This document shows, piece after piece, positions 12,281 to 43,874 of a DNA stretch of 44,398 nt. Within the stretch, counting starts at the first letter, position 1, and each line of letters starts with the position of its first letter. The stretch is from a virus: the IMG/VR virus record IMGVR_UViG_3300045988_090220, positions 1 to 44,398 of that record. One strand, given 5' to 3'. The translations under genes were made by a program, and so were the position numbers. The notes beneath the pieces were generated by a model. The model made no database searches. It saw only the letters and a program-made list of their open reading frames with translations, and had not been told where the DNA came from.

Positions 12281-12841
12281 TTACTTCAAAATTGTCTGCC
12301 AGTCAGAGTGTTCCTTGATAAACTCCAACTGGGCTTTGGTGTCGAGTTTCAGAAAATCAGCCTTGGTCATCTCGCCGCCCTTACCACCGGCAGGAGGCTT
12401 GGGGGTTTCTTTCAGAACCTTGGCTTTCACATCTTTTTCATACTGTTCCAGAAACGTCTTCTGTGCTGCAAAGACCTTATCCATCTCACCGTTCGCCATA
12501 GCGGTAGCGGCTTCGGTCGCCAGCGGCTCAGGATAGCCCTGTGCGGCGAAACTCGCCTTGTAACTGGAAACGGTCTTCTCCTTTTCCAGCCCCGCCAACT
12601 TGTTCTTCATTTCCTCGAACATCTGCTCATTTTCCAACTTCTTGCGTTCTTCCTCAGAAAGCAGCTCATTGTGCTTCTTCTTCCAAGACGCAAGCTCGGA
12701 AGCGGTCTTGTCAAAGACATCTTTCTTCACATAGCCGGTATAATCAGGGTCGGGAAACTCGTAGTTTGCGAGGGCTTCCGCTTTCTGCTCTGCGGTCATA
12801 TTTGCAAAGCCCTCAATGGTGGAAACATCAATCTTTGCCAT
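12281..12841 (-). CDS. Capsid scaffolding protein
   Basis: Likely start MAKIDVSTIEGF (12841) after a GAAAGGAA RBS. Highly charged K/E-rich helical protein between portal and capsid genes. Confidence 0.7.
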   Translation of the reverse strand: MAKIDVSTIEGFANMTAEQKAEALANYEFPDPDYTGYVKKDVFDKTASELASWKKKHNELLSEEERKKLENEQMFEEMKNKLAGLEKEKTVSSYKASFAAQGYPEPLATEAATAMANGEMDKVFAAQKTFLEQYEKDVKAKVLKETPKPPAGGKGGEMTKADFLKLDTKAQLEFIKEHSDWQTILK

Positions 12842-14673: not shown

Positions 14674-16326
14674 TCAAATAGGCCGTTTGAAAACTTCCAC
14701 CTTGCCCCCGGACAGCATACGGATTTCGTTCTCCAACAGGGAGAGAGAGTCAGGAGCGTCATCGTGCGGAACCTTACCGGAGCGGGTGTAGGTGGTCACT
14801 TCCTTCATGAAATTCCAATACTGACTGCCCCGCTTGTAGGTGGAGGGGTGCTTGAAGTAGAAGTTCTTCTTGATGTTGTCGGAAGCGAACTCAATACGGG
14901 TCTGCTTGTTGGATATCGTGCGCTTCGTGCGGATACCAACAGAGTACCCACGCTCCCGAATGATCTGGTCAACATCTCTGGCATAATATTGACCGGCATT
15001 GTTGGACTCAAAGACAGCGGAAGCCGCCTTGTTCTCGATCAGGCACTTGGCACATTCCGGCTTCGTTACCTCAGCGGGAGAGTCATCAAAGACCACATCA
15101 ACGATATACACAGCATTGCCGTATATCATCGCCACCGGCATAGAGGTCGAGTCAGAGCCGCTTTCCGCCGTATCGCCAACGGCGATGATGGTGTCCGGGT
15201 CACGGTCTTTCGGCAGCTCAAAGAAGTAGTTCAGCTCGTCCTTGCCGAACAGCAGACCCTTCGCTTCAAAGGGCTGTTGCTGGAACTCACTCTCAAACTG
15301 CTCTGCGCTCAGAAGCTCCCGCTGCTCCCGGAAGTAGGCGGTAGTAAAGACCTTCTTGCCCTCCCGCTCGTATTCATAATTGCTCTCGTCCGTCACGAGA
15401 TCGAGGGCGGGTATCTCAATCGCTCTCCAAGCCCAGCCCTCCCGCTGTGCGTGTTCCTGCACACGACCGATGGGGTCATACAGGGAATAGCGAGTGCCGG
15501 TGAAAACCATCGGCGTACCTTCAATGGCACGACCCATAATATCGCCGGAGATCACTTCCCACTTGTCATCAAGCCGCTGGCGGTTCTTCGCCTCCTCACG
15601 ACCCTCCACACAGTCATCGAGGTAGAGGACATTGGTGGCTTCGGACAAGCCCACCTGTCGAGCGTCAATGGAACGACACATGATGGTGGGGAAACGGGAC
15701 TTGCTTTTCAGGTTCGCCGTCTTCGTGTCGGCATTGGTCTGTACCAGCCGTGCGTCCGGGAACACATCGTAGAACAGGTACTCGTTGGGAACTGTCAGGT
15801 ATTCCAGACAACCATTGTAGAAGCTCTTTACAAGGTCATCGCCTGTCCCTTCCATCAGAGTCGAGCGGTCAGGGAACTTGCCAGAGATCATATTCACAAA
15901 ATTGATACCCGTTTGAGACTTTCCCGCTCGTTTCGGCATGGAGATCGTCAAAAGACGCAGCTTCCCGTCCAGAACATCTTGAAACCCCTGTACCATCGGC
16001 CTGAGATAGTGCTTACGGGGAGCATAGAACCGCTTTTCCGGCTTGCGGTCGAGTTCGATATAAGTCATGAAGGAGTCAAAATCATGGGGCGCTTCAAAGA
16101 GAAGACACCGCCGCCACTGTTCATAGAACTTCGCCCCGCCGCCACGGACTACCTGATCTGCGGAGAGTGCCAACAACTTCTTGTTCATCTTATGTGCCGC
16201 CGAGAAATCCTCGGTTTCCCACTCCCGGCACAAAGAAAAGAGATCGCTGTACGCCCCGTTATCTCCCGGTCGGCGGTCGATCACGGCTCGAATAGAGCCG
16301 GAGAGTTTTTCATAATTCATGTGCAT
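14674..16326 (-). CDS. terL: Terminase large subunit
   Basis: 550 aa. Walker A-like MPKRAGKSQTG and a C-terminal nuclease-type region. Followed by the portal gene. The second ATG (16320) has better RBS spacing. Confidence 0.9.
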   Translation of the reverse strand: MHMNYEKLSGSIRAVIDRRPGDNGAYSDLFSLCREWETEDFSAAHKMNKKLLALSADQVVRGGGAKFYEQWRRCLLFEAPHDFDSFMTYIELDRKPEKRFYAPRKHYLRPMVQGFQDVLDGKLRLLTISMPKRAGKSQTGINFVNMISGKFPDRSTLMEGTGDDLVKSFYNGCLEYLTVPNEYLFYDVFPDARLVQTNADTKTANLKSKSRFPTIMCRSIDARQVGLSEATNVLYLDDCVEGREEAKNRQRLDDKWEVISGDIMGRAIEGTPMVFTGTRYSLYDPIGRVQEHAQREGWAWRAIEIPALDLVTDESNYEYEREGKKVFTTAYFREQRELLSAEQFESEFQQQPFEAKGLLFGKDELNYFFELPKDRDPDTIIAVGDTAESGSDSTSMPVAMIYGNAVYIVDVVFDDSPAEVTKPECAKCLIENKAASAVFESNNAGQYYARDVDQIIRERGYSVGIRTKRTISNKQTRIEFASDNIKKNFYFKHPSTYKRGSQYWNFMKEVTTYTRSGKVPHDDAPDSLSLLENEIRMLSGGKVEVFKRPI

Positions 16327-16338
16327 TTCCTTTCCAAT

Positions 16339-16377
16339 AAAAAACGAGCTACCCGTGTATTTCTACACAGATAGCCC
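16339..16377 (-). terminator. Terminator-like hairpin just upstream of terL
   Basis: Minus strand imperfect stem GGGCTATCTGTGTA-GAAA-TACACGGGTAGCTC followed by GTTTTTT. Preceded by a conserved 27-nt box (16372-16398). Confidence 0.45.
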
Positions 16378-16483
16378 GTCATGGCTGTCACTCCCGCCCT
16401 TGCAGAAGCCTTATTTATTTAACTTCAACAACTCCGCCAGTACAAAAATCGGCAGGAGAAGTATTAACAAAACGATATACATA

Positions 16484-17329
16484 TCACTCCACCACCAATT
16501 CACAGTCAATCCAGCTACCAGCACTCAAACATTCACCAACAAAGGTAATGGTATCTCCGACCTTGACTGTTTTAAGATTTTCTTCTTGCTCTTTCTCGAA
16601 CTCGGCGTAGAAAATAACGATTGTATTTCCTACCGTCTTCTCCAAGGTCAAGGTGGCTCCGCCTGTCAGATTAAACAATCCATCATTGGTCATGCCATCA
16701 ATTTTAGCAGTCACTCGATAGCGATTGTTTTTATACAGGTCATCGGCAACCAGTTCGTTTTCCTTATATGCCTTATAGATTTCCTCGAAAGTAGCAGTTC
16801 CTACCGTATCTTCTTCCTTCTCAGTTTCCTGTTTAGGGACAGTTTCGGACTTCTCGCTATTTTCTTGATTATCATTGGACGTTGTTTCTTTGGAGGGTTC
16901 GTTTAATTTTTTGAGAACTTCGGTTTCCTCGTAACCGCACCGGCTGCACCTTGTTACAAATTCACCATCACTCTCGGAGGTAGGTTTAATCCGGCTAACC
17001 TCCCGCATATCGTGTCCTAATCGTTTAATCGTCTCAGTCGTATCCCGGCCACACAAGTCACAATGATATTTTGTATATCCATCCTCTGTACAACTTGCTT
17101 CTTTCGTCTCAACGAGCCTATTCTCATGCTTGCACCATGTGGCTGGGGAGGTAAGTACACCGACTGTAATAACCGCCGCAAAGGAAATCCAAAACCACTT
17201 GAACCACTTCCATTTCGGCTTCTTTCTAATCTTTCGGATAATCCAAATCACCAAGAGAACGGGGGCGGCTATCAATTCGAGGGTGGCTATAAAGGAACAA
17301 ATGTTAGAAATTATTTGCATTTCAACCAA
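16484..17329 (-). CDS. Membrane protein with Zn-ribbon repeats and a C-terminal OB-fold (tRNA_anti-like) domain
   Basis: 281 aa. Two N-terminal hydrophobic helices, CxxxxxxxxC..CDLCG and CSRCG motifs, an acidic linker, and a C-terminus (YKENELVADDLYKNNRYRVTAKIDG...VKVGDTITFVGEC) that resembles the tRNA_anti-like OB family. Confidence 0.6.
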   Translation of the reverse strand: MVEMQIISNICSFIATLELIAAPVLLVIWIIRKIRKKPKWKWFKWFWISFAAVITVGVLTSPATWCKHENRLVETKEASCTEDGYTKYHCDLCGRDTTETIKRLGHDMREVSRIKPTSESDGEFVTRCSRCGYEETEVLKKLNEPSKETTSNDNQENSEKSETVPKQETEKEEDTVGTATFEEIYKAYKENELVADDLYKNNRYRVTAKIDGMTNDGLFNLTGGATLTLEKTVGNTIVIFYAEFEKEQEENLKTVKVGDTITFVGECLSAGSWIDCELVVE

Positions 17330-17942
17330 CCTTTCTTACTCGATCATACCATGTAGACCGACTAATGCCGAGTTCTCGACAACAGTCCGCTACGGTAATA
17401 AGACCGTCTTTTTGTTTTTGAGCGAGTTTTTCAAACTGCTCGTCATCAATCTCGGAAGCGGGTCTGCCGAACCCTCTGCCAGTCTTCACCGACACCCGCT
17501 TGCCATCGACAATCGGCATGGCGGCGATACCCTCAGCCTGCCGCTGCTTGGTCTTCTTACGCTCCTGCTCGGCAACAGCGCCAAGGACTTCAATCAGAAT
17601 GTTGTTGACCATTTCCAGCACCCATGTCTGGTCTTTGAAGTCAATCAGCGTGGTCGGAATGTCGAGGATACGGACGATCACACCCTTCTGCTTGAACCAT
17701 TCCAGTTCTCGCTTCATTTCGTCCTTGTTGCGCCCAAAGCGGTCGAACTCCTTGACGATGACTTCATCACCTTCCCGCACAATGGCCTTCAAAGCATTGT
17801 ACTGAGGACGGTCGAAGCTGCTTCCCGTGATCTTGTCGCAGTACACATTCTCGTCAGGAATATCGAACTTCTCACGGGCGACCTTGAGTTGCCGAGCAAG
17901 GTTCTGTTCCTTACTGGACACACGACCAAGGAAGTATTTCAT
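17322..17942 (-). CDS. Small serine recombinase (resolvase/invertase family)
   Basis: 206 aa. GRVSSKEQ catalytic-Ser motif, DRFGRN, AVAEQERKKTKQRQ and a C-terminal HTH (ELGISRSTWYDRV). Confidence 0.9.
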   Translation of the reverse strand: MKYFLGRVSSKEQNLARQLKVAREKFDIPDENVYCDKITGSSFDRPQYNALKAIVREGDEVIVKEFDRFGRNKDEMKRELEWFKQKGVIVRILDIPTTLIDFKDQTWVLEMVNNILIEVLGAVAEQERKKTKQRQAEGIAAMPIVDGKRVSVKTGRGFGRPASEIDDEQFEKLAQKQKDGLITVADCCRELGISRSTWYDRVRKVG

Positions 17943-17945
17943 GGT

Positions 17946-18179
17946 TCACTCCACCTCGTATCCACCGTCCGGCAGACGGGTATTGGCAGGAACAACGATG
18001 ACCTTGTAATCCATCGCTCTGAGCATAGTGGTCAGCAGGGACACGGGAATGTCCTTGACATTTTTGTTGTTCAAGCGTTCCCAAATGGTAGCGTTAGATA
18101 CCTTGAGCCTTTTTGCGAGTTCAGCGTTGGAAAGAGACTTGGAAGTCATGATCTCTTTCAGGATTTCTCGACCTCTCAT
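17946..18179 (-). CDS. XRE-type HTH DNA-binding protein
   Basis: Start MRGREILKEIM at 18179, set by the GAGGTG RBS and by the consensus promoter lying over the longer ORF start. HTH is LSNAELAKRLKVSNATIWERL. Confidence 0.75.
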   Translation of the reverse strand: MRGREILKEIMTSKSLSNAELAKRLKVSNATIWERLNNKNVKDIPVSLLTTMLRAMDYKVIVVPANTRLPDGGYEVE

Positions 18180-18197: not shown

Positions 18198-18226
18198 ATT
18201 ATACATATCAAGCGTTTTATTGTCAA
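18198..18226 (-). promoter_or_regulatory. Perfect consensus sigma70 promoter for the HTH-resolvase-membrane protein operon
   Basis: Minus strand TTGACA-17 nt-TATAAT. The spacer is made of the repeated motif CAATAAAACGCTTGA. Confidence 0.7.
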
Positions 18227-18237
18227 GCGTTTTCTTG
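18208..18237. promoter_or_regulatory. Two tandem copies of 15-mer TCAAGCGTTTT(A/C)TTG (operator- or res-like)
   Basis: Copies at 18208-18222 and 18223-18237. The same motif occurs four times at 20353-20438. Confidence 0.6.
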
Positions 18238-18521
18238 AAATTGATCTTTTTATTTTTTGCGGGTATTTTTCAGCTTACCCCGCCCTCGCTGCCGCTGGTA
18301 TATCCCCCGCCCCCGTCACCCATTCACGCCGCTCAGATCAGGCCGGAAAAGCGCAAAAAACAGGGCAGCTCTGCACCGCCCTAACACCCCCGCATTATAA
18401 CACCGCCGCAAACCCCATTAGAACGCCATACACGGCGTTTAGTATAGGCGGTAGTACCAGTATACCACCAAACCGCAAAAGCCCGTAAAACGCCCTTAAA
18501 ACGCCTTTACGGATAAAGCAT

Positions 18522-18554
18522 AAAAACAACCGCCCCGGAATAGCACCGGGGCGG
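18522..18554 (-). terminator. Rho-independent terminator of the five-gene operon
   Basis: Minus strand CCGCCCCGG-TGCTATT-CCGGGGCGG followed by TTGTTTTT, about 95 nt downstream of the stop at 18648. Confidence 0.75.
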
Positions 18555-18647
18555 CGTTCACTTATTCAATTTCAGTATTTCAATCAGGATTTGAAACGGC
18601 AGCAAAAGCAACAAAAGAATTAAATACATAAAAAAATATATCTCCTT

Positions 18648-18914
18648 TCAAGAAAATGTAAAGCGCCTTGTTTCCGTGGCTCTGGTGTACTGTGCTGCCA
18701 CTCCCGGCAACTCTCGCTTTAATGCCGTAGTATCAATGCGGGAGCTTGTAACGGCCTTATATGTGGCCTTGTGTTCCGTCCCTGTTAGCGTGTCCGTGTT
18801 CTGTTCCTGCATAATCTGCTTTAACTGGTCTTTCAGGCCGTCCACCGTGGCGGCAATCTCTTCACCCATGCGGATATACTCCGCAAGCTCTTTCATAATA
18901 CTATCAATATTCAT
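18648..18914 (-). CDS. Hypothetical protein (88 aa)
   Basis: AT-rich ORF. N-terminal coiled-coil-like helix, then KATYKAVTSSRIDTTALKRELPGVAAQYTRATETRRFTFS. No domain I can name. Confidence 0.65.
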   Translation of the reverse strand: MNIDSIMKELAEYIRMGEEIAATVDGLKDQLKQIMQEQNTDTLTGTEHKATYKAVTSSRIDTTALKRELPGVAAQYTRATETRRFTFS

Positions 18915-18926
18915 ATTGCACCCCCG

Positions 18927-19274
18927 TTAAAATACCGTATCAACAACGGTTAGAATTGTTACCCACAGATCAATATACTGTGTGCTGTATCCGGTATAAT
19001 CGCCCCTGTCAAACTCTGTTTTGCCCGTGATAACATAGCCAACTTGTTTTGCGCCCCCGTCTGATAGATCAACGAACATTTCCGACTTGTTTTTAATGGC
19101 ATTTTTGGAAATGGTGATACAGTACTTTTCTTTCACCCGTTCCCGGTAAATTTCAAGCGCATTTTCCACGCTATCCGCATCTATGCGCATATCCGAAACA
19201 ATGCCGCCGTCAATGTACCACTTTTTATTGTTGTATTCTTTCATTGTTGCCGTTGTTTTGAAAATGTAATTCAT
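18927..19274 (-). CDS. Hypothetical protein (115 aa)
   Basis: ORF in the tightly packed island operon. Confidence 0.65.
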   Translation of the reverse strand: MNYIFKTTATMKEYNNKKWYIDGGIVSDMRIDADSVENALEIYRERVKEKYCITISKNAIKNKSEMFVDLSDGGAKQVGYVITGKTEFDRGDYTGYSTQYIDLWVTILTVVDTVF

Positions 19275-19276
19275 AA

Positions 19277-19525
19277 TTAAACCCCCATTCTAATACATTC
19301 ATCAAGTGGAATTTTATACCCATGCACCCGGAAAAATGCGCTATCTTTCCCGTTTGCGGGATAGTAGATTTTGCACCGGTGGAACGCTTTACCGCCGCCC
19401 CACGCCCCGGAAACACAATAAACATAATCGTTAACGCCGTATTCAATGCCTTTAATTTCAAGGCCATTTAAGCCGCTATAATATGCAATGCTTTCCCGGC
19501 TTTCGCAATATTCCCGTTTATTCAT
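19277..19525 (-). CDS. Hypothetical protein (82 aa)
   Basis: ORF in the tightly packed island operon. Confidence 0.6.
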   Translation of the reverse strand: MNKREYCESRESIAYYSGLNGLEIKGIEYGVNDYVYCVSGAWGGGKAFHRCKIYYPANGKDSAFFRVHGYKIPLDECIRMGV

Positions 19526-19862
19526 GATTGCAAACCCCCTTTATAAAATCCCTTGCAAGGCTTTTCAGGCTTTCCCGCTGCTGTTCATAGGAAAGGCTAT
19601 AATCATAGCGGATTTTTTCGGCCTGTTCTTCCACGGCTTTCACCTGTTCATAAGTGGGGCGGATATTTCCGAAAGGGGCATACCCGGTTACAATGGCAAC
19701 CCCGCCGCCCATATCGTAAATATCAGCCGCCCACCCTTCCCGGCGTTGTGTATAGGCAACCGGGCTTTCATAATTCAAAAGATACTGTAAACTACAATAG
19801 GAAACGCAAATAATTGTGGAATAACCGGCCTTTACTGCCTTTTGCGTTGTCTTGAATTTCAT
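19518..19862 (-). CDS. Hypothetical protein (about 114 aa)
   Basis: ATG at 19862 (MKFKTTQKAVKAGY) with an AAAGGGGTG RBS. The longer form starts at a TTG inside the upstream stop region. Confidence 0.6.
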   Translation of the reverse strand: MKFKTTQKAVKAGYSTIICVSYCSLQYLLNYESPVAYTQRREGWAADIYDMGGGVAIVTGYAPFGNIRPTYEQVKAVEEQAEKIRYDYSLSYEQQRESLKSLARDFIKGVCNHE

Positions 19863-19876
19863 GTGATACACCCCTT

Positions 19877-20230
19877 TCAATAATTCACGCTGTTAGCTGC
19901 ACGGCGTTTATACATGGCTTTCAAACTTTCGGCGGGGGTCATATCCGCCGCTTTCGGCTTTTCCATTTCTACCGGCTGCGTATCCCACCACGCTTTCCCG
20001 CCGCCGTTCATATCATAGAACGAAAGAAAACTATTCACATGGCGCATTGTAGTAGCAGAATAACCGCCCCACATACGAACGAACCGCCCCGCCGCCGTAA
20101 TACGGCAAACAAAAGTATTATAGGACTGTAAAACTTTTTCGCCGTTTTCCGTTTCAATGATTTTCGCCTTTCCGTAAAAACTTTTTGCTCGATCAGAACC
20201 GCAAACGGGTAAATCAAATATCTTTTTCAT
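19877..20230 (-). CDS. Hypothetical protein (117 aa)
   Basis: First gene of the island operon (MKKIFDLPVCGSDRAKSFYGKAKIIE...YSATTMRHVNSF). Confidence 0.65.
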   Translation of the reverse strand: MKKIFDLPVCGSDRAKSFYGKAKIIETENGEKVLQSYNTFVCRITAAGRFVRMWGGYSATTMRHVNSFLSFYDMNGGGKAWWDTQPVEMEKPKAADMTPAESLKAMYKRRAANSVNY

Positions 20231-20352
20231 AAAGTAATCAGCCTTTCATAATATATTCCATTCCGTTTTCCCATTTCGGCCTTGATACGCTGAAAGCCTA
20301 TTTCACCGGCCTACATGGGAAAATGTACGGGGATTTAATTTTCAAGGTGCAA

Positions 20353-20445
20353 TCAAGTGTTTTATTGATGGTTAGAGTATATCAAGCGTTTTATTGTTTG
20401 TCAAGCGTTTTATTGATATTTTATCAAGTTTTTTATTGACGCTTG
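20353..20445. promoter_or_regulatory. Four copies of TCAAG(C/T)(G/T)TTTTATTG plus one inverted half site
   Basis: Copies at 20353-20367, 20382-20396, 20401-20415 and 20424-20438. ACGCTTG (reverse complement of CAAGCGT) at 20439-20445. Confidence 0.6.
20376..20404 (-). promoter_or_regulatory. Consensus sigma70 promoter of the five-gene island operon
   Basis: Minus strand TTGACA-17 nt-TATACT. The spacer and -35 are built from the repeated 15-mer. Confidence 0.65.
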
Positions 20446-20619
20446 CAACCGTCTGAAAAACTACACTTTTTTGCACTATACATTATAAAGGGCAAAAACA
20501 CCGCCCCGATCAGGCCGGAACCCCGGCAACGCCCACGCCGCCGCGGTGGAACCCGCCGCCCCGATCAGGCCGGGAAAAGGAAAAGCCGCCGACCCCGTGA
20601 AGAGATCGGCAGCTCTGTC

Positions 20620-20774
20620 AAAGTCGCAGACCTTCGCCGGAAAGTCGCAAAGTCGCAAAGTCGTTCGGGCGAAAGTCGTGAAAGTCGCGGGATAGTTGCA
20701 AAGTCGCTCGGCATAGTCGTAAGCCATAGTCGCAAAAGTCGTGAAAGTCGCTCAGTCCTCCGGGTCATAGTCGC
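20620..20774. repeat. Array of 13 octamers (A/T)AAGTCG(C/T), read on the plus strand
   Basis: Copies start at 20620, 20641, 20649, 20657, 20672, 20681, 20692 (variant ATAGTTGC), 20700, 20713, 20726, 20735, 20744 and 20767. The array abuts the terS stop codon (20752-20754). Confidence 0.9.
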
Positions 20775-21321
20775 TGGACGAACCAACCACATCTTCGAGG
20801 TACTTCTTCTCCAAGTCCTCGGCGGGAACCTGATTTCCGAGCTGCTGGTTGGGTGTCAACACGACCTCCTGCTTGTCCGCATAGCCCATGTTGTTCTTCA
20901 TCAGGAAGATACCGGCAACCGGATTGATCTTTCCGTTCTGCATATAGTTTTCCATCTGAGCGTTCAAAAATTGATACGCCTTTTTTAGCAAGTCACGGCT
21001 TTCGGTGGGGATATAAGCACTTTCAATGCCATTTACCCATCTCCACAAAGTCATTCTATCAATGCCAAATGCCAATGCCATACCCGCAACAGAGGGTTTC
21101 ATGTCATCTTCGGCACAAATCCGAAAGTAATTTCTAATACGCTCAGTCACAGCTTCCGGCTTGGTCATATCCACAGCAGGCCAGTCCCACATTCTCAGAT
21201 CGTGTTCAAGAAACTTCCGATTATCTCCCGGTTGAAGCTGTGCCGTACTATCAGGCCGCTTATTGCCGCCAGTACCCTTCGGTCTGCCACGACCACGCTT
21301 TTTCACAATTTCATCTGCCAT
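20752..21321 (-). CDS. terS: Terminase small subunit (gp3-packaging type)
   Basis: 189 aa. Basic N-terminus KKRGRGRPKGTGG, HTH PSVAGMALAFGIDRMTLWRWVNG, and a C-terminal NPVAGIFLMKNNMGYADKQEV motif typical of small terminases. Confidence 0.8.
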   Translation of the reverse strand: MADEIVKKRGRGRPKGTGGNKRPDSTAQLQPGDNRKFLEHDLRMWDWPAVDMTKPEAVTERIRNYFRICAEDDMKPSVAGMALAFGIDRMTLWRWVNGIESAYIPTESRDLLKKAYQFLNAQMENYMQNGKINPVAGIFLMKNNMGYADKQEVVLTPNQQLGNQVPAEDLEKKYLEDVVGSSSDYDPED

Positions 21322-21348
21322 AGTCGTTTTCTCCTTTCAAAGTCGTCA

Positions 21349-21457
21349 AGGTGATAAAGGTGAGTAATCGGGTGCATTTTCCTATAACTATTTCTATATA
21401 CGCGCGTATAAGAGAGAGTTATAGGCATTTATGCCCGATTACTCACCTAACTCACCT
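21349..21457. repeat. Palindromic MITE-like element, copy A
   Basis: Left arm AGGTGATAAAGGTGAGTAATCGGG and right arm CCCGATTACTCACCTAACTCACCT. Inner inverted repeat CCTATAAC/GTTATAGG. Perfect 14-bp central palindrome TATACGCGCGTATA (21397-21410). Both arms are identical to copy B at 42960-43067. Confidence 0.9.
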
Positions 21458-21515
21458 AAAATACGAAAAACAATTTTTCAAAACACGCCAATTTGAAAAA
21501 AGTCTTTGCAGAAAC

Positions 21516-22078: not shown

Positions 22079-22238
22079 CTGCTCCCCCTTTGGATTGCTG
22101 TCCAAAAATATTGGCGGCGATAAAGGCTTGGGTCAAAGTCATTGCTTCCTTTGAGGATGCTCCTGCGTCAATGAGATTGCGGTAGAAATTCAAAGAAGTT
22201 TCAGCCAAAATACCAATGGCTTTTAGAAATTCATTCAT
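22065..22238 (-). CDS. Small hypothetical protein (57 aa)
   Basis: Hand-translated MNEFLKAIGILAETSLNFYRNLIDAGASSKEAMTLTQAFIAANIFGQQSKGGADDYE. ATGA overlap with the FolD-like stop. Fills an otherwise empty gap. Confidence 0.5.
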   Translation of the reverse strand: MNEFLKAIGILAETSLNFYRNLIDAGASSKEAMTLTQAFIAANIFGQQSKGGADDYE

Positions 22239-22891
22239 GCCCTATGCTCCTTTCTTGCAAAGCGGTTGAGCAACACGCTCACGGTGAGCTGACCAATCCT
22301 GTTCACATAGGGACAGTTGAAGAAGTCAGGGAGAGGGACGCTGTTGCCGAGGTCGATGACCAGATCACGGGTGTTGTAGGAAATGTCCTTCGTGATAGTC
22401 GGCGTGGCGTAGATCACCACATCACGGTTTATCGTGGCCTGTAAAAGACTCTTAGTCTTGGAGTGCGCCACCGTCACCGTTGCGTTGTTGAGAGTGAGGT
22501 ACTTTGCCAAGTTCTGAACGGCGTGACCCCGGCCTACGATGGTAATGTCCTTGGCGTGAACCAAGTCCAGCGCAAACAAAAGGGTTAAAGTCGCCTGAGA
22601 GACAGCCGACATTCCCGGCGAGTAGGAGTTATCAATGTCCACATCGGCGGAAATCTGAACGCTGGCAGGGACAGTCTCACCGTCCACGATGACTCCCTGA
22701 TAGGGAGGGGTGAAGTGAAAGGTGTGGTCGCACTCGATACCGAAAGCGTCTGCTTTGCGGTGGACTGCTTTCAGGAACACGCTGTCCTGAGAACCCAGCA
22801 GAAGCAGCTTTCCAGAAGTGGGGAGCAAGCTGGCAGTCTCTTTGTCCAGAGCGGCAGAGAGGTCGTGGATTTTTGCCATTACATCATTCAT
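22235..22891 (-). CDS. Divergent FolD-like methylene-THF dehydrogenase/cyclohydrolase
   Basis: Start MNDVMAKIHDL (22891). ITIVGRGHAVQNLAKYLTLNNATVTVAHSKTKSL...DVVIYATPT...VIDLG...IGQLTVSVLLNR aligns by eye with the FolD NAD(P)-binding domain (VVIGASNIVGRP..LLL..ATVTxxHxxT..ADLLIVAVG..VIDVG..VGPMTVA.L). Confidence 0.55.
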   Translation of the reverse strand: MNDVMAKIHDLSAALDKETASLLPTSGKLLLLGSQDSVFLKAVHRKADAFGIECDHTFHFTPPYQGVIVDGETVPASVQISADVDIDNSYSPGMSAVSQATLTLLFALDLVHAKDITIVGRGHAVQNLAKYLTLNNATVTVAHSKTKSLLQATINRDVVIYATPTITKDISYNTRDLVIDLGNSVPLPDFFNCPYVNRIGQLTVSVLLNRFARKEHRA

Positions 22892-23069
22892 AGTGCTTCT
22901 CCTTTCTTTCAAAGTCATGGAGGGAGATCATCTTCTCACGGGTGAGCTTGTCAACCACCCGCCCGATCTCCGAGTAGCCGCAAACCGCTGCCAGCCGTTC
23001 AAGGTTTCCCTTGGTCTGTGCCGTGACTACGATAGAAATACGGCGGAGGTTCTTTTTCTCAGTCTTCAT
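22884..23069 (-). CDS. Ribbon-helix-helix (CopG/Arc-like) small protein
   Basis: MKTEKKNLRRISIVVTAQTKGNLERLAAVCGYSEIGRVVDKLTREK, with a GGAGGA RBS. Only the last 61 codons of track ORF 22884-23327 are plausible. Confidence 0.5.
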   Translation of the reverse strand: MKTEKKNLRRISIVVTAQTKGNLERLAAVCGYSEIGRVVDKLTREKMISLHDFERKEKHYE

Positions 23070-25903: not shown

Positions 25904-26047
25904 TCACTTCCTTTCCTTCATCGCTCTCGCCAATACCAAAATGGCACACTTCTGAGAGTCTTCGTCCCACCATGCACATAACTCGTGGCAATAATACCCT
26001 TCATCTATTTTAGGATTTAACGGGCATACCTTGTTCTTAATCTCCAT
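25904..26047 (-). CDS. Small Cys-rich protein (47 aa)
   Basis: Hand-translated MEIKNKVCPLNPKIDEGYYCHELCAWWDEDSQKCAILVLARAMKERK. Overlaps the MazF-like stop by 11 nt and ends 4 nt before the next start. Confidence 0.45.
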   Translation of the reverse strand: MEIKNKVCPLNPKIDEGYYCHELCAWWDEDSQKCAILVLARAMKERK

Positions 26048-40771: not shown

Positions 40772-40800
40772 AGTATAACCCCATAATTGGGATTTGTCAA
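40772..40800 (-). promoter_or_regulatory. Leftward early (lytic) promoter
   Basis: Minus strand TTGACA-17 nt-TATACT. It faces the rightward promoter, so the predicted transcripts overlap by about 100 nt. Confidence 0.55.
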
Positions 40801-40844
40801 TATCTTTTTTGGGATTATTGGGAAAACTATTGGAGGGATATGTT

Positions 40845-41243
40845 ATGACTATTTTCATGGAGAGACTTCAAAAATTGATGGACGAACGCGACCTCACTGA
40901 TAAAGATTTAAGAGAACAGTGCGGTGGTATTAGTAAAAACAATATTACAAACTGGCGTAAAGGGACAAAACCGCAAGTAGCAATCGTCCATCAACTCGCC
41001 GATTTTTTCGGTGTATCGAGCAATTATTTGTTAGGTATTGATGATATGAAACAGCGAATATTAGATATACTCGACCAACCCACCCCTTCTTCTGCTCCAA
41101 CACAATCACAATTAGACACGCTGGTTAAGTATTTCTCTCTGTGCAACGAAGAAGGACGGTTCCGCATCATACAGCTTGCCATGAACGAATACGACCGAGC
41201 GGCAAAAGGAAAAACAGACTTGTCTAAAGAGTCTGCTGTCTAA
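40845..41243 (+). CDS. CI-like XRE-family repressor
   Basis: Start MTIFMERLQKLM (40845) after GGAGGG. HTH is LREQCGGISKNNITNWRKG...VHQLADFFGVSSNYLLG. Sits upstream of the integrase on the same strand. Confidence 0.75.
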   Translation: MTIFMERLQKLMDERDLTDKDLREQCGGISKNNITNWRKGTKPQVAIVHQLADFFGVSSNYLLGIDDMKQRILDILDQPTPSSAPTQSQLDTLVKYFSLCNEEGRFRIIQLAMNEYDRAAKGKTDLSKESAV

Positions 41244-41279: not shown

Positions 41280-42932
41280 ATGAAAACGAAGAAACTGCCT
41301 ATCGACCTATCTATGCTTACCGTAGAGGAACAGCAACAGTTTGTTGATGACCCCACCACACTGGTGAGAGGTAACATCAATGTGACGCTCTATCTGCGGT
41401 TCAGTTCTGATCGGCAATCTGAGCAATCCATTGAAGGGCAACTTCGAGACTGTATTGCATATTGTAAACGGAAAGAATACCGCATTACCGCCATCTACAT
41501 TGACCGCGCAACGACCGCTCGAAAGGATATTGAGAAGCGTGTTCAGTTTCAGCAGATGATTTCCGACAGCAAACATGGTCTATGGGAATTGGTCATCGTA
41601 TGGAAACTCGACCGATTTGCCAGAAATAGAGAAGACAGCGCCGTATTTAAAATGCGGCTGCGGAAGAATGGTGTTCGGGTGGAATCTGCAACGGAAGCGA
41701 TTTCCAACACCCCGGAAGGTATCATCTTAGAGTCCGTGCTTGAAGGAATTGCCGAATATTATTCCGCAGACCTCAGCCAGAAAATTACCCGGGGCATGAG
41801 AGAGTCCGCCTTAAAAGGTCACTCCATCGGTGGTCATGTTCCCTTGGGGTATAAAATCGAGAATCATAGACTTATCATCAACTCCGCAACTGCCCTGATA
41901 GTACAGGAGGCATTTGAGCGCTACGCCAACGGAGAAAGTATTGCCGACATTTGCCGACTGTTTAATCTGAAAGGCTATCGTACCGCCAAAGGAGCCGAGT
42001 TTAACCGTAGTTCTTTCAAAGCCATGTTCCGAAACACTCGTTATATTGGAACCTACACTTACAAAGAAATCACTATGGAAAATACCATTCCGGCCATTAT
42101 CGACAAAGAACTATTCGACACGGTGCAGAAACGGCTTTCTAAGGTCGCAGAAGCCCCAGCAAGGGGTAAAGCTAAGGTAGATTACCTCTTGTCTGGAAAG
42201 CTGTTCTGCGGTCATTGTGGGGCGTCTATGAACGGTGAAAGTGGCACCAGTAAGACAGGAGCCGTTCATAATTATTATTCTTGTTACAGCCGGAAAAGAA
42301 AACAAGGCTGTGATAAGCGACCTATAAGGAAAGAATGGATTGAAACCATCGTCGCGCAGGACGCTTTAAATTTGTTGACCGATGACACTATTGAAGAACT
42401 GGCTGATATGGCATTGTTTCAATCCGAACAAGACATGAAAGAAACCACCCGTATTCCAGCATTAACCGCACAGCAAAAAGAAATCGAACAAAGTATATCT
42501 AACATCACCAAGGCTATCGAAAAGGGTGTAGCTTCTGATACTCTCCTAAATCGACTTACAGATTTAGAGAAAGAGAAAAAAGGTGTCCTAAAACAAATCA
42601 CAGAAGAAAATAAACTGTTCTATCAGATCGACCGAAAGCAAATTACAGGTTGGCTCTATCAATTCAAAAACGGCGATATATCCGATGATAGTTTCAAGCG
42701 GCAGCTCATAGATTTACTGGTAAACTCTGTAACGGTGTGGGACGAACCTGACGGATATAGAATTACTACTGCATATAATCTCACTACTTGTAAAACTAAA
42801 ACTTTTAGAGTGGATAGTAGTGGTCAGGAGTTCGGATTAGAGGGGTTATCGTCCACCATTGGACGCATATCCGAACCCTACGTTGTGTGGGGAACGGTGT
42901 TCGTTCAAACCAAAAGACACTCCTTACCTTAA
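41280..42932 (+). CDS. int: Large serine recombinase (phage integrase)
   Basis: 550 aa. Catalytic YLRFSSDRQ, DRFARN, a recombinase domain, a zinc ribbon (CGHCG...YYSCYSRKRKQGC) and a C-terminal coiled coil. Confidence 0.9.
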   Translation: MKTKKLPIDLSMLTVEEQQQFVDDPTTLVRGNINVTLYLRFSSDRQSEQSIEGQLRDCIAYCKRKEYRITAIYIDRATTARKDIEKRVQFQQMISDSKHGLWELVIVWKLDRFARNREDSAVFKMRLRKNGVRVESATEAISNTPEGIILESVLEGIAEYYSADLSQKITRGMRESALKGHSIGGHVPLGYKIENHRLIINSATALIVQEAFERYANGESIADICRLFNLKGYRTAKGAEFNRSSFKAMFRNTRYIGTYTYKEITMENTIPAIIDKELFDTVQKRLSKVAEAPARGKAKVDYLLSGKLFCGHCGASMNGESGTSKTGAVHNYYSCYSRKRKQGCDKRPIRKEWIETIVAQDALNLLTDDTIEELADMALFQSEQDMKETTRIPALTAQQKEIEQSISNITKAIEKGVASDTLLNRLTDLEKEKKGVLKQITEENKLFYQIDRKQITGWLYQFKNGDISDDSFKRQLIDLLVNSVTVWDEPDGYRITTAYNLTTCKTKTFRVDSSGQEFGLEGLSSTIGRISEPYVVWGTVFVQTKRHSLP

Positions 42933-42953: not shown

Positions 42954-42959
42954 ACATTT

Positions 42960-43067
42960 AGGTGATAAAGGTGAGTAATCGGGCGTTTTTCCTATAAACT
43001 CTTTATTATACGCGCATACTAAGAAGAAGTTATAGGGATTTTAACCCGATTACTCACCTAACTCACC
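42960..43067. repeat. Palindromic MITE-like element, copy B (attP candidate region)
   Basis: Same 24-bp arms as copy A (AGGTGATAAAGGTGAGTAATCGGG and CCCGATTACTCACCTAACTCACCT). Inner inverted repeat CCTATAA/GTTATAGG. Centre is TATACGCGCATA. The element abuts the endolysin stop codon. Confidence 0.9.
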
Positions 43068-43874
43068 TTACTGTCCCAGCAGCTTGCCCCACGTCCCCTT
43101 TCCGGCGATACCGTCCGCGCCCAGCCCGTACTTGGTCTGGAACTTCTTCAGCGCCGTCTCCGTGCCGCTGCCGAAGTCGCCGTCCGCACCGGCCGCGCCG
43201 CAGAAAAAGCCGTAGGCGATCAGCGCCGCTTGCAGGGTCTTCACGTCCGCACCCGCCATGCCGCGCTTGAGCATCCGCACCTGCATGGGGATGGTCACAT
43301 CCTGCGCCGCAGGTGCAGGCACCGGCACAGGCACGTTGGCGCTCTCCACAAAGGGTACGCCCAGCGCCGCACACAGCCCCTTGGCAATAGTCTCGCCGAT
43401 CAGGGTGGTATTGTCGATGATCCACTGGGCAACGCTGGGAACATCGTGGAAGTCCACCTCGATATACACCGTCGTAGCGGCAGGGTGCTTCACCTCGTAC
43501 AGCGCGGGATAGGCTCGAATCACGTCCGGCGCACCCGGCGTAATCGGGCCAAGTACATTCATTACGGCCTGACACGCCTTGTACCCTGCGCTGTTCCGGT
43601 CGCCGCTGTAACAGAACAGGTGCGTACCGCTGGCCTTGCCATTGCAGGCGTTGGAATGGATGGGGACGTGCAGGTCAGCCTTGAAGCGGTTGGACGCCGC
43701 CACACGGTTCTGCATGGTGTCGTACTGCCCCAGCATCACCTCCACACCGGAGCGCTCCAGAGCGGCCTTGCAAGCCTCTGCAATGCGCCCGCACTGGATG
43801 GCCTCGGTGGTGCCGCCCACCGCGTAGGTGTTCCTCCGCTGGTCGCTGGGGGACAGATACACCCGCTTAGCCAT
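43068..43874 (-). CDS. Endolysin: N-acetylmuramoyl-L-alanine amidase plus a PG_binding_1 domain
   Basis: Amidase_3-like N-terminal domain (VYLSPSDQ...LHVPIHSNACNGKASGTHLFCYS). C-terminal peptidoglycan-binding repeat (GADVKTLQAALIAYGF...DGDFGSGTETALKKFQTKYGLGADGIAGKGTW). Confidence 0.85.
   Translation of the reverse strand: MAKRVYLSPSDQRRNTYAVGGTTEAIQCGRIAEACKAALERSGVEVMLGQYDTMQNRVAASNRFKADLHVPIHSNACNGKASGTHLFCYSGDRNSAGYKACQAVMNVLGPITPGAPDVIRAYPALYEVKHPAATTVYIEVDFHDVPSVAQWIIDNTTLIGETIAKGLCAALGVPFVESANVPVPVPAPAAQDVTIPMQVRMLKRGMAGADVKTLQAALIAYGFFCGAAGADGDFGSGTETALKKFQTKYGLGADGIAGKGTWGKLLGQ

Follow-up and report, generated by a model that had tools for sequence, protein, structure and literature searches.

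The window analysed here is the whole of a 44,398-nucleotide stretch of viral DNA (IMG/VR record IMGVR_UViG_3300045988_090220, positions 1 to 44,398), and it is a temperate gut phage. Between the genes for its small and large terminase subunits (terS and terL) lies an accessory island in which a short repeat is clustered at two promoters, one ahead of a cassette of five small genes (P_cas) and one ahead of the gene for a 77-aa helix-turn-helix protein, here called HTH (P_HTH). Judging from sequence comparison, the repeats are probably the operators of the adjacent HTH protein, which has an XRE-like fold and would repress both its own promoter and the cassette promoter. The two together are most likely an uncharacterised repressor-operator pair of a familiar kind, and not a recombination site. 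An earlier note on this DNA had proposed the same reading, with autoregulation of the HTH and repression of the cassette as its two parts, and it gains strong comparative support from two directions: the motif tracks the HTH across related phages, and both promoters change their repeats together when the regulator is of another type.

The repeat, TCAAGCGTTTTATTG, occurs on the plus strand at 18208 (no mismatches) and 18223 (one mismatch), and in an upper cluster at 20353 (one mismatch), 20382 and 20401 (none in either) and 20424 (two). The sole further match with three mismatches or fewer in the 44.4-kb window lies at 25989, on the opposite strand and with three mismatches. None of 100 dinucleotide shuffles reached seven matches, the mean being 1.14. 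The six motif copies in two clusters that had been described are confirmed. The inverted half site described beside them is also present, as ACGCTTG at 20439-20445. On the coding (minus) strand the repeat reads CAATAAAACGCTTGA, and the operator logo on that strand is tCAATAAAAC[R]CTTGA, a unit of 15/16 bp with a single variable position. Its ends form a TCAA-N8-TTGA pseudo-dyad with 4 bp per arm. The spacing between copies varies (15, 19, 23 and 29), and each copy is therefore argued to be a separate binding unit.

The repeat was also searched for on its own, and a motif-only scan of IMG/VR returned 80 loci. Single copies without the HTH make up 63 of these and look like chance matches. Among the 17 loci with several copies, 13 encode an HTH relative, three more lie on contigs already known to bear the HTH, and the fourth of the remainder is a hybrid locus, L094, which is discussed below. 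The possibility that the motif is a common promoter element found genome-wide was rejected, since clusters are found only with the HTH, the window holds no extra copy, and the scattered single copies in IMG/VR lack the HTH.

Both clusters lie over strong sigma-70 promoters on the minus strand. The core of P_HTH (TTGACA-17-TATAAT, 18226..18198) has its -35 element TTGACA at 18226-18221 and its -10 element TATAAT at 18203-18198, and it matches the consensus at 12 of 12 positions. The core of P_cas (TTGACA-17-TATACT with a TG extension, 20404..20376) matches at 11 of 12. These are the two best promoter matches within 16.3-21.4 kb, and the statement that the motif forms the -35 element and spacer of a consensus promoter is borne out at both clusters. 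At P_HTH the copies cover the -35 element and the spacer, 19 nt upstream of the start-codon region. The placement of every copy is given in Table 1, where operators are numbered from predicted start sites set about 7 nt past the -10 element. Near-consensus promoters with sites on the -35 element, the spacer and +1 have the geometry that repression and negative autoregulation would be expected to show.

In the proposed mechanism, both promoters would fire strongly when the HTH protein is missing, either upon entry or through dilution. As the protein builds up it would occupy the operators and block RNA polymerase at the -35 element, the spacer and +1, and in doing so it would throttle its own synthesis and shut off the cassette. 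The P_cas unit and the P_HTH unit would behave as autonomous, terminator-insulated transcription units, and the conserved promoter/operator and terminator/P_HTH modules may double as homology anchors for cassette exchange between related phages.

The open reading frames (ORFs) had been placed correctly, and the start of the HTH, MRGRE, is backed by 25 homologues. Pfam assigns HTH_24 above threshold and HTH_3 below it. The AlphaFold model of the protein is confident (pLDDT 90.6) and shows four helices with a tail at the C-terminus; the best PDB folds found with Foldseek are an XRE-family regulator, HipB, DdrO, CapH and the controller (C) proteins of restriction-modification systems. These matches have TM values of about 0.6, E-values of 0.009-0.2 and probabilities of about 1.0, with sequence identities of 14-24% for HipB and the C-proteins. 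The predicted structure places the protein in the XRE class of helix-turn-helix folds. HipB and the C-proteins are small dimeric repressors which use several operators, and the HTH may bind as a dimer as they do. A sequence search of the PDB with the HTH, in which the solved anti-CRISPR-associated (Aca) proteins were among those searched, found no chain at E <= 0.1. The family consists of 45 homologous clusters, all of them unnamed. Its recognition-helix region, SNATIWERLNNKNVKDIP, is nearly invariant across homologues, which is consistent with a conserved operator.

Relatives of the island were collected by scanning IMG/VR with the HTH protein, which gave 71 loci, and further loci were added by genome and metagenome look-ups. 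Across HTH relatives of 55-99% identity the motif is found with the HTH, in tandem as well as divergent layouts. The hybrid locus L094 has a different protein at the HTH position (12394-12681), a 96-aa HTH with 25% identity to the window protein (E 0.25), and its P_HTH bears ATTCAGT repeats in place of the window motif. A scan with this second regulator, called type B to distinguish it from the type A of the window, yielded 80 loci (L198-L277) with a terS-cassette-HTH-(recombinase)-terL layout, and type B thus stands in for the window-type regulator at this island position in at least 80 viral contigs. The sequence of P_HTH-B is TTGACAACAAAATAAATTCAGTGTATAGT. That of P_cas-B is TTGACAACTGAATTTATTCAGTGTATATT, with an additional ATTCAGTG about 20 nt past the -10 element. 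The type B repeats, ATTCAGT/ACTGAAT, lie in the spacer and just past the -10 element (about +16..+23 in L219), a position like that of the type A repeats.

Within 120 nt ahead of the HTH gene, at least two type A repeats are found at 63 of the 76 type A loci (at least one at 70) and at none of the 77 type B loci, so that the predicted autoregulatory copies are conserved in 63-70 of 76. Divergent layouts and HTH relatives of 55-78% identity are among these. At least two ATTCAGT repeats are found at 39 of the 77 type B loci and at none of the 76 type A loci. Those 39 are all the type B loci with at least 89% identity to the query, and the repeat variants are graded in more diverged type B proteins. 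The cassette promoter gives a similar picture among loci with at least 3 kb upstream: its core is A-type at 51 of 59 type A loci and B-type at none, and B-type at 24 of 61 type B loci and A-type at one. P_cas and P_HTH lie 1-2.6 kb apart across a recombining cassette and still match in type. That both promoters match each other and the regulator type across this cassette is the strongest non-experimental evidence that the repeats are HTH operators. TerL (85% to the window), the leader and cargo genes are common to type B phages and the type A phages of the L057 clade, which argues that the swap is modular and not a deep clade split.

Several points weigh against this reading. All of its support is comparative, and many of the loci are closely related, so the counts are not counts of independent events. 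P_HTH adjoins the HTH gene, so co-inheritance alone proves little there and the argument rests on the distant P_cas match. The operator interior, TAAAACRC, is conserved yet asymmetric, and the dyad has only 4 bp per arm, which leaves the binding mode uncertain; the Foldseek E-values are weak as well (>= 0.009). The main counter-example is L094/L198, where a type B HTH and a type B P_HTH are found with an A-type P_cas, leaving orphan operators within the roughly 17 kb of this contig that the analysis covered. This locus looks like a recombinant. From the comparison we infer binding by the HTH, binding as a dimer, repression and not activation, the timing of expression and the function of the cargo.

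The orphan A-type P_cas beside a type B HTH also bears on a different explanation, in which the repeats are regulatory but the actor is the CI-like repressor at 40794-41243 or a host factor, or in which the HTH activates. The compared loci span about 6 kb on each side, which leaves co-variation with other phage regulators outside the comparison, and C-proteins, the structural neighbours of the HTH, are able to activate as well as repress. We nevertheless consider this explanation unlikely. The repeat sits in the HTH gene's own promoter at 70 of 76 loci and switches with the HTH type, the motif is found nowhere else in the 44-kb phage, and sites on the -35 element, spacer and +1 of promoters with 11-12 of 12 consensus positions suggest the geometry of a repressor, with no need for an activator.

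The second reading offered earlier was that the clusters are res-like or crossover sites, perhaps with the HTH as an accessory or architectural protein, at which the neighbouring serine recombinase would excise, resolve or invert the cassette. Its appeal lies in the layout: the recombinase gene is co-transcribed with the HTH gene and lies 3 nt downstream of it, the repeats are upstream of the recombinase operon as res precedes tnpR, most relatives have a serine recombinase along with the HTH, and the cassette is inverted in some of them. The inverted cassettes carry P_cas along, so their breakpoints lie outside the repeats. The motif also keeps no company with a particular recombinase. It is kept with recombinases of 43% (L041) and 39% identity (L057-61), as it is in window-like relatives where the identity is 99%; it is kept beside a 276-aa Resolvase+Recombinase protein in L076 and without any recombinase in L062-67 and L074. 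A recombinase 82% identical to that of the window (L245) sits with a different HTH and without the motif. In L077, which has a 254-aa Resolvase+Recombinase protein, the P_HTH copies are too diverged for detection at three mismatches or fewer.

The architecture of the sites points the same way. Serine crossover sites are built of inverted half sites of 12-14 bp on either side of a central dinucleotide, and their accessory subsites keep a fixed spacing. The clusters are made of 16-bp units with 4-bp dyad arms at the variable spacing given above, placed on promoter hexamers, and no larger inverted-repeat crossover site of the site I kind was seen at them. No junction between terS and HTH through a single hybrid cluster was found in about 75 related loci. 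Taken together, the independence from the recombinase, the site architecture and the lack of a deletion product in those loci leave a res- or hix-type site unsupported and very improbable, and the idea of cassette excision by the neighbouring resolvase is dropped. Two loci had been considered as deletion products and were rejected: L003 has an integrase/CI module upstream and its cargo genes are still present, and L037 is without terS and has a reverse transcriptase-like ORF. Neither of them shows a hybrid-site junction.

Tandem short repeats beside a small DNA-binding protein with predicted autoregulation also resemble ParR/parC or omega-type systems. The repeats would then be iterons or centromere-like (parC/parS-type) sites and the HTH a centromere-binding or initiator protein. 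The island genes, however, are the HTH, the recombinase, a superinfection exclusion (Sie)-like gene and small unknown ORFs, with no ParA/ParM or Rep gene among them. Elsewhere the phage encodes a large serine integrase and a primase of the D5 type, a plasmid collection gave no match, and the repeat sites are confined to two promoters. This explanation is the least probable of all those weighed here.

As predicted HTH operators, the repeats invite comparison with the regulators of anti-CRISPR genes (acr-aca). In such loci a co-encoded HTH, the Aca regulator, represses the strong promoter from which variable small genes are transcribed (PMC9410906, PMC6765145), Aca control extends to neighbouring operons, including anti-defence operons (PMC12282945, PMC13551039), and repression of variable upstream genes together with neighbouring operons thus has precedent (PMC9410906, PMC13551039, PMC12282945). 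As in acr-aca loci, variable small genes are followed by a small HTH gene, repeats cover the core elements of a very strong promoter, the regulator lies behind its own copy of the sites, one regulator is predicted to serve two adjacent operons, the locus lies among morphogenesis and packaging genes, and a 5' leader that is conserved and possibly structured occurs at some loci. Unlike in acr-aca loci, none of the cargo genes is recognised as an Acr or anti-defence gene, and no sequence similarity between the HTH and solved Aca proteins was detected. The HTH also has its own promoter in a terminator-separated operon where an Aca gene would be the last of the cargo operon, it shares this operon with the serine recombinase and Sie-like genes, and its operators are mostly same-orientation pseudo-dyads and not clear inverted repeats. 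Membership of the HTH in one of the named Aca families (Aca1-14) is not established.

Other known systems resemble the island in part. The morons of temperate phages, a concept of Hendrix and Juhala, are autonomous promoter-gene-terminator units in late operons. The island likewise consists of terminator-insulated, low-GC units with sigma-70 promoters between two essential late genes, a superinfection-exclusion-like gene included, but it is set apart from morons by a predicted repressor of its own with several operators, and by an architecture for cassette exchange that is conserved over a broad range of phages, whose TerL identity falls to about 33%. HipB of hipBA and the C-proteins share with the HTH a small XRE-fold regulator, several operators over the -35 and -10 elements and negative autoregulation, which is predicted here. 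The HipB operator is TATCC-N8-GGATA, with short half sites about 8 bp apart as in TCAA-N8-TTGA. The HTH differs from both in being without a toxin or restriction partner, and the likeness in fold and sequence is low. The recombinases of Tn3/gamma-delta, Sin/beta res and Hin/Gin resemble the one here in that a promoter with repeats stands ahead of a gene for a small serine recombinase, and the res site of Tn3 doubles as an operator; unlike at those sites, the motif here is independent of the recombinase and no recombination products were seen.

The predicted operators frame a segment of changing content. About 75 related metagenomic phages have kept both promoter modules, and nearly all close relatives have the four-copy and two-copy clusters with order and internal spacing unchanged, at a distance of 0.9-2.8 kb from each other. 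The ORFs between the clusters form a mosaic in which about 30 families are variously combined, and they vary among about 55 loci, the five of the window being one alternative. DNA homology runs from terS through 20352, the base after the last P_cas operator, breaks off, and resumes at 18628-18522, which contains the terminator, and from 18360 onward. With modules conserved and a mosaic between them, the segment appears to be a cargo-exchange hotspot flanked by regulatory modules. In five loci whose HTH is 55-72% identical (L075, L078, L079, L086 and L122), the cassette promoter module is on the opposite strand and divergent from P_HTH. The cassette itself is inverted with this module in L075, L078 and L079, the loci with gene calls, and the 29/19 spacing is kept there. 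Two further kinds of insertion were noted in relatives. A gene for a 315-aa HNH endonuclease (PHROG 3377, 3e-60) is found in L002, L005, L018 and L053, each time at the position of window 18274, between the conserved terminator block and P_HTH, in a manner resembling homing-endonuclease insertion. An insertion of about 300 nt with an extra small ORF lies between the HTH and recombinase genes in about 30 loci (L027-L055 group) and is a further exchange point.

The five cargo ORFs of the window found no relatives in Pfam, NCBIfam, PADLOC or PDB sequence searches, and the PHROG matches of these ORFs and of the alternative families are to unknown-function families only. The structure predicted for the first ORF was searched against PDB and BFVD folds and matched DUF8033 folds in BFVD. 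None of the main alternative families matched Pfam, nor did the two of them that were checked against NCBIfam and PADLOC match there. Across Pfam, PHROGs, NCBIfam, PADLOC and the PDB, no cargo gene matches a known anti-CRISPR or anti-defence gene, and a literature search for a described terS-terL anti-defence hotspot gave nothing specific.

A conserved leader of about 100 nt stands between the last P_cas operator and the first cargo gene at some type A and type B loci only, before differing first genes (also in L016, L022, L057, L094, L204 and L229-L241). RNAalifold folds it into four nested helices, with 97% of cells paired against 25-44% in slid controls, and two pairs show compensatory changes. 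At gathering thresholds Rfam has no family in the window, and only sub-threshold chance matches fall at 20.2-20.8 kb. On its modelled folding the leader is a candidate cis-regulatory RNA.

A broader interpretation, which we put forward tentatively and hold to be less likely than its opposite, is that an Aca-like repressor gates the island, which would be a hotspot for genes of anti-defence or of host takeover in other ways, carried by phages of Clostridia (Oscillospiraceae-like) that are abundant in the human gut. Under this interpretation the interchangeable specificity types (A CAATAAAACRCTTGA; B ATTCAGT/ACTGAAT) would diversify like immunity groups, perhaps because an incoming phage could have its cargo promoter silenced by the regulator of a resident prophage when both are of one type. 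The leader, as a new cis-regulatory RNA, would provide a second layer of control that does not depend on the regulator. If this were true, the roughly 30 cargo families would be a ready list of candidates for new anti-defence proteins. The HTH family, with its two specificity types and defined motifs, gives a handle that marks a cargo-exchange hotspot in uncultured human-gut phages, which form a large group. Motif and HTH could be used together for guilt-by-association gene finding, as Aca proteins led to anti-CRISPRs, and the natural swap between type A and type B makes operator specificity directly testable.

The features of the island are collected in Table 1. It fills 4.4 kb between terS and terL with a GC content of 38-47% against about 52%, and every gene of the region is on the minus strand. 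In the direction of transcription its first half holds terminators, P_cas with its four operators, the optional leader and the five small ORFs; its second half holds terminators, P_HTH with its two operators, the HTH, the small serine recombinase, the Sie-like membrane protein and a terminator ahead of terL. The Sie-like gene overlaps the recombinase gene. The terminators between terS and terL would insulate the packaging genes from island transcripts. The Sie-like protein (16484-17329) has Cys-rich motifs, and its gene is swapped for others in many relatives.

Table 1. Coordinates of the predicted operators, genes, terminators and leader of the terS-terL island; operator positions are relative to the predicted start sites.
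Feature	Position	Strand	Remarks
Predicted operator O1 of P_cas, TCAATAAAAAACTTGA	20424..20439	-	about -70..-55; abuts the inverted half site 20439-20445
Predicted operator O2 of P_cas, TCAATAAAACGCTTGA	20401..20416	-	-47..-32; its TTGA + CA forms the -35 element TTGACA (20404-20399)
Predicted operator O3 of P_cas, ACAATAAAACGCTTGA	20382..20397	-	-28..-13; fills the 17-nt spacer and abuts the -10 element TATACT (20381-20376)
Predicted operator O4 of P_cas, TCAATAAAACACTTGA	20353..20368	-	about +2..+17; homology to related phages ends right after it, at 20352
Two abutting predicted P_HTH operators, TCAAGAAAACGCTTGA and CAATAAAACGCTTGA	18208..18238	-	-47..-32 and -31..-17
77-aa HTH, proposed repressor	17946..18179	-	XRE-like four-helix fold with C-terminal tail; Pfam HTH_24 6e-7
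Small serine recombinase (resolvase/invertase type), co-transcribed with HTH	17322..17942	-	Pfam Resolvase 8e-22; PHROG 125 DNA invertase
Sie-like membrane protein, tRNA_anti-like/OB domain, final gene of the HTH operon	16484..17329	-	Pfam PF12869 2e-6; PHROG 8545 superinfection exclusion Sie-like 6e-10
Five-gene cargo cassette	18648..20230	-	19877-20230 (DUF8033), 19518-19862, 19277-19525, 18927-19274, 18648-18914
Optional conserved 5' leader, candidate structured RNA	20249..20351	-	follows O4 and precedes the first cargo gene
Intrinsic-terminator-like hairpin after terS (upstream C-rich block)	20582..20616	-	15-pair stem, tail TCCTTTTCCC
Second, weaker terminator-like hairpin after terS	20503-20521	-	
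Strong intrinsic terminator closing the cassette transcript	18529..18555	-	10-pair stem with 9 GC pairs, tail TGTTTTTATG
Second terminator-like hairpin, inside the conserved downstream C-rich block	18361-18383	-	
Strong terminator-like hairpin after the Sie-like gene	16343-16380	-	about 17 nt upstream of the terL start
Small terminase subunit terS, upstream border of the island	20752..21321	-	Pfam GP3_package 5.6e-12; PHROG 606 terminase small subunit
Large terminase subunit terL, downstream border of the island	14674..16326	-	PHROG 38 2e-44

The C-rich blocks which the earlier note had described as shared by the two modules are real: 18327-18357 and 20554-20584 are 81% identical, and GGCAGCTCTG is shared as well. 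The upstream block has CCGGCCTGATC...GCGG and CAGAGCTGCC in common with 18327-18385. These blocks coincide with intrinsic-terminator-like hairpins and T tracts on the minus strand (20616-20582, 20521-20503 and 18383-18361). Alignment between the two modules is confined to the operator/promoter core of about 45 nt and to about 35 nt of the terminator block, and what lies between these is unalignable. The description of the modules as a degenerate direct repeat bracketing the ORFs is misleading: one transcription unit follows another here, and each has a terminator, operators and a promoter of its own. A G-rich stretch with GGGGGATAT(A), at 18255-18330 of the window on the minus strand, lies about 60-100 nt upstream of P_HTH and is kept in both type A and type B loci (L073, L075, L078 and L094).

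Two other repeated elements were noted near terS. A palindromic element of about 113 nt, with arms GGTGATAAAGGTGAGTAATCGGG ... CCCGATTACTCACCTAACTCACCT, occurs twice, at 21348-21460 and 42954-43074. The late operon has a copy at each of its ends. The one at its start lies a short way ahead of terS; the one at its end falls between the integrase and endolysin genes, whose ends converge there. The copy upstream of terS is found at 55 of 90 loci with the small recombinase and at none of 22 without it, a link which is confounded by relatedness; an insulator or terminator, an antitermination element and a recombinase target are candidate roles. Octamers of the forms AAAGTCGC/ATAGTCGC/AAAGTCGT occur about 11 times on the same strand at 20620-20774, straddling the 3' end of terS, and six of the seven exact copies in the whole window fall in this interval. 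The array is a candidate pac site or TerS-binding array.

Elsewhere in the window are the CI-like HTH (40794-41243) and the large serine integrase (41280-42932), an amidase endolysin is encoded along with the D5-type primase, and the portal, head and tail genes are on the minus strand. In the GenBank phage collection the only matches were two unannotated faecal contigs. An ORF of the early region (22235-22918) matches PF02882 (6.6e-10), the NAD(P)-binding domain of tetrahydrofolate dehydrogenase/cyclohydrolase, and is a possible auxiliary metabolic gene.

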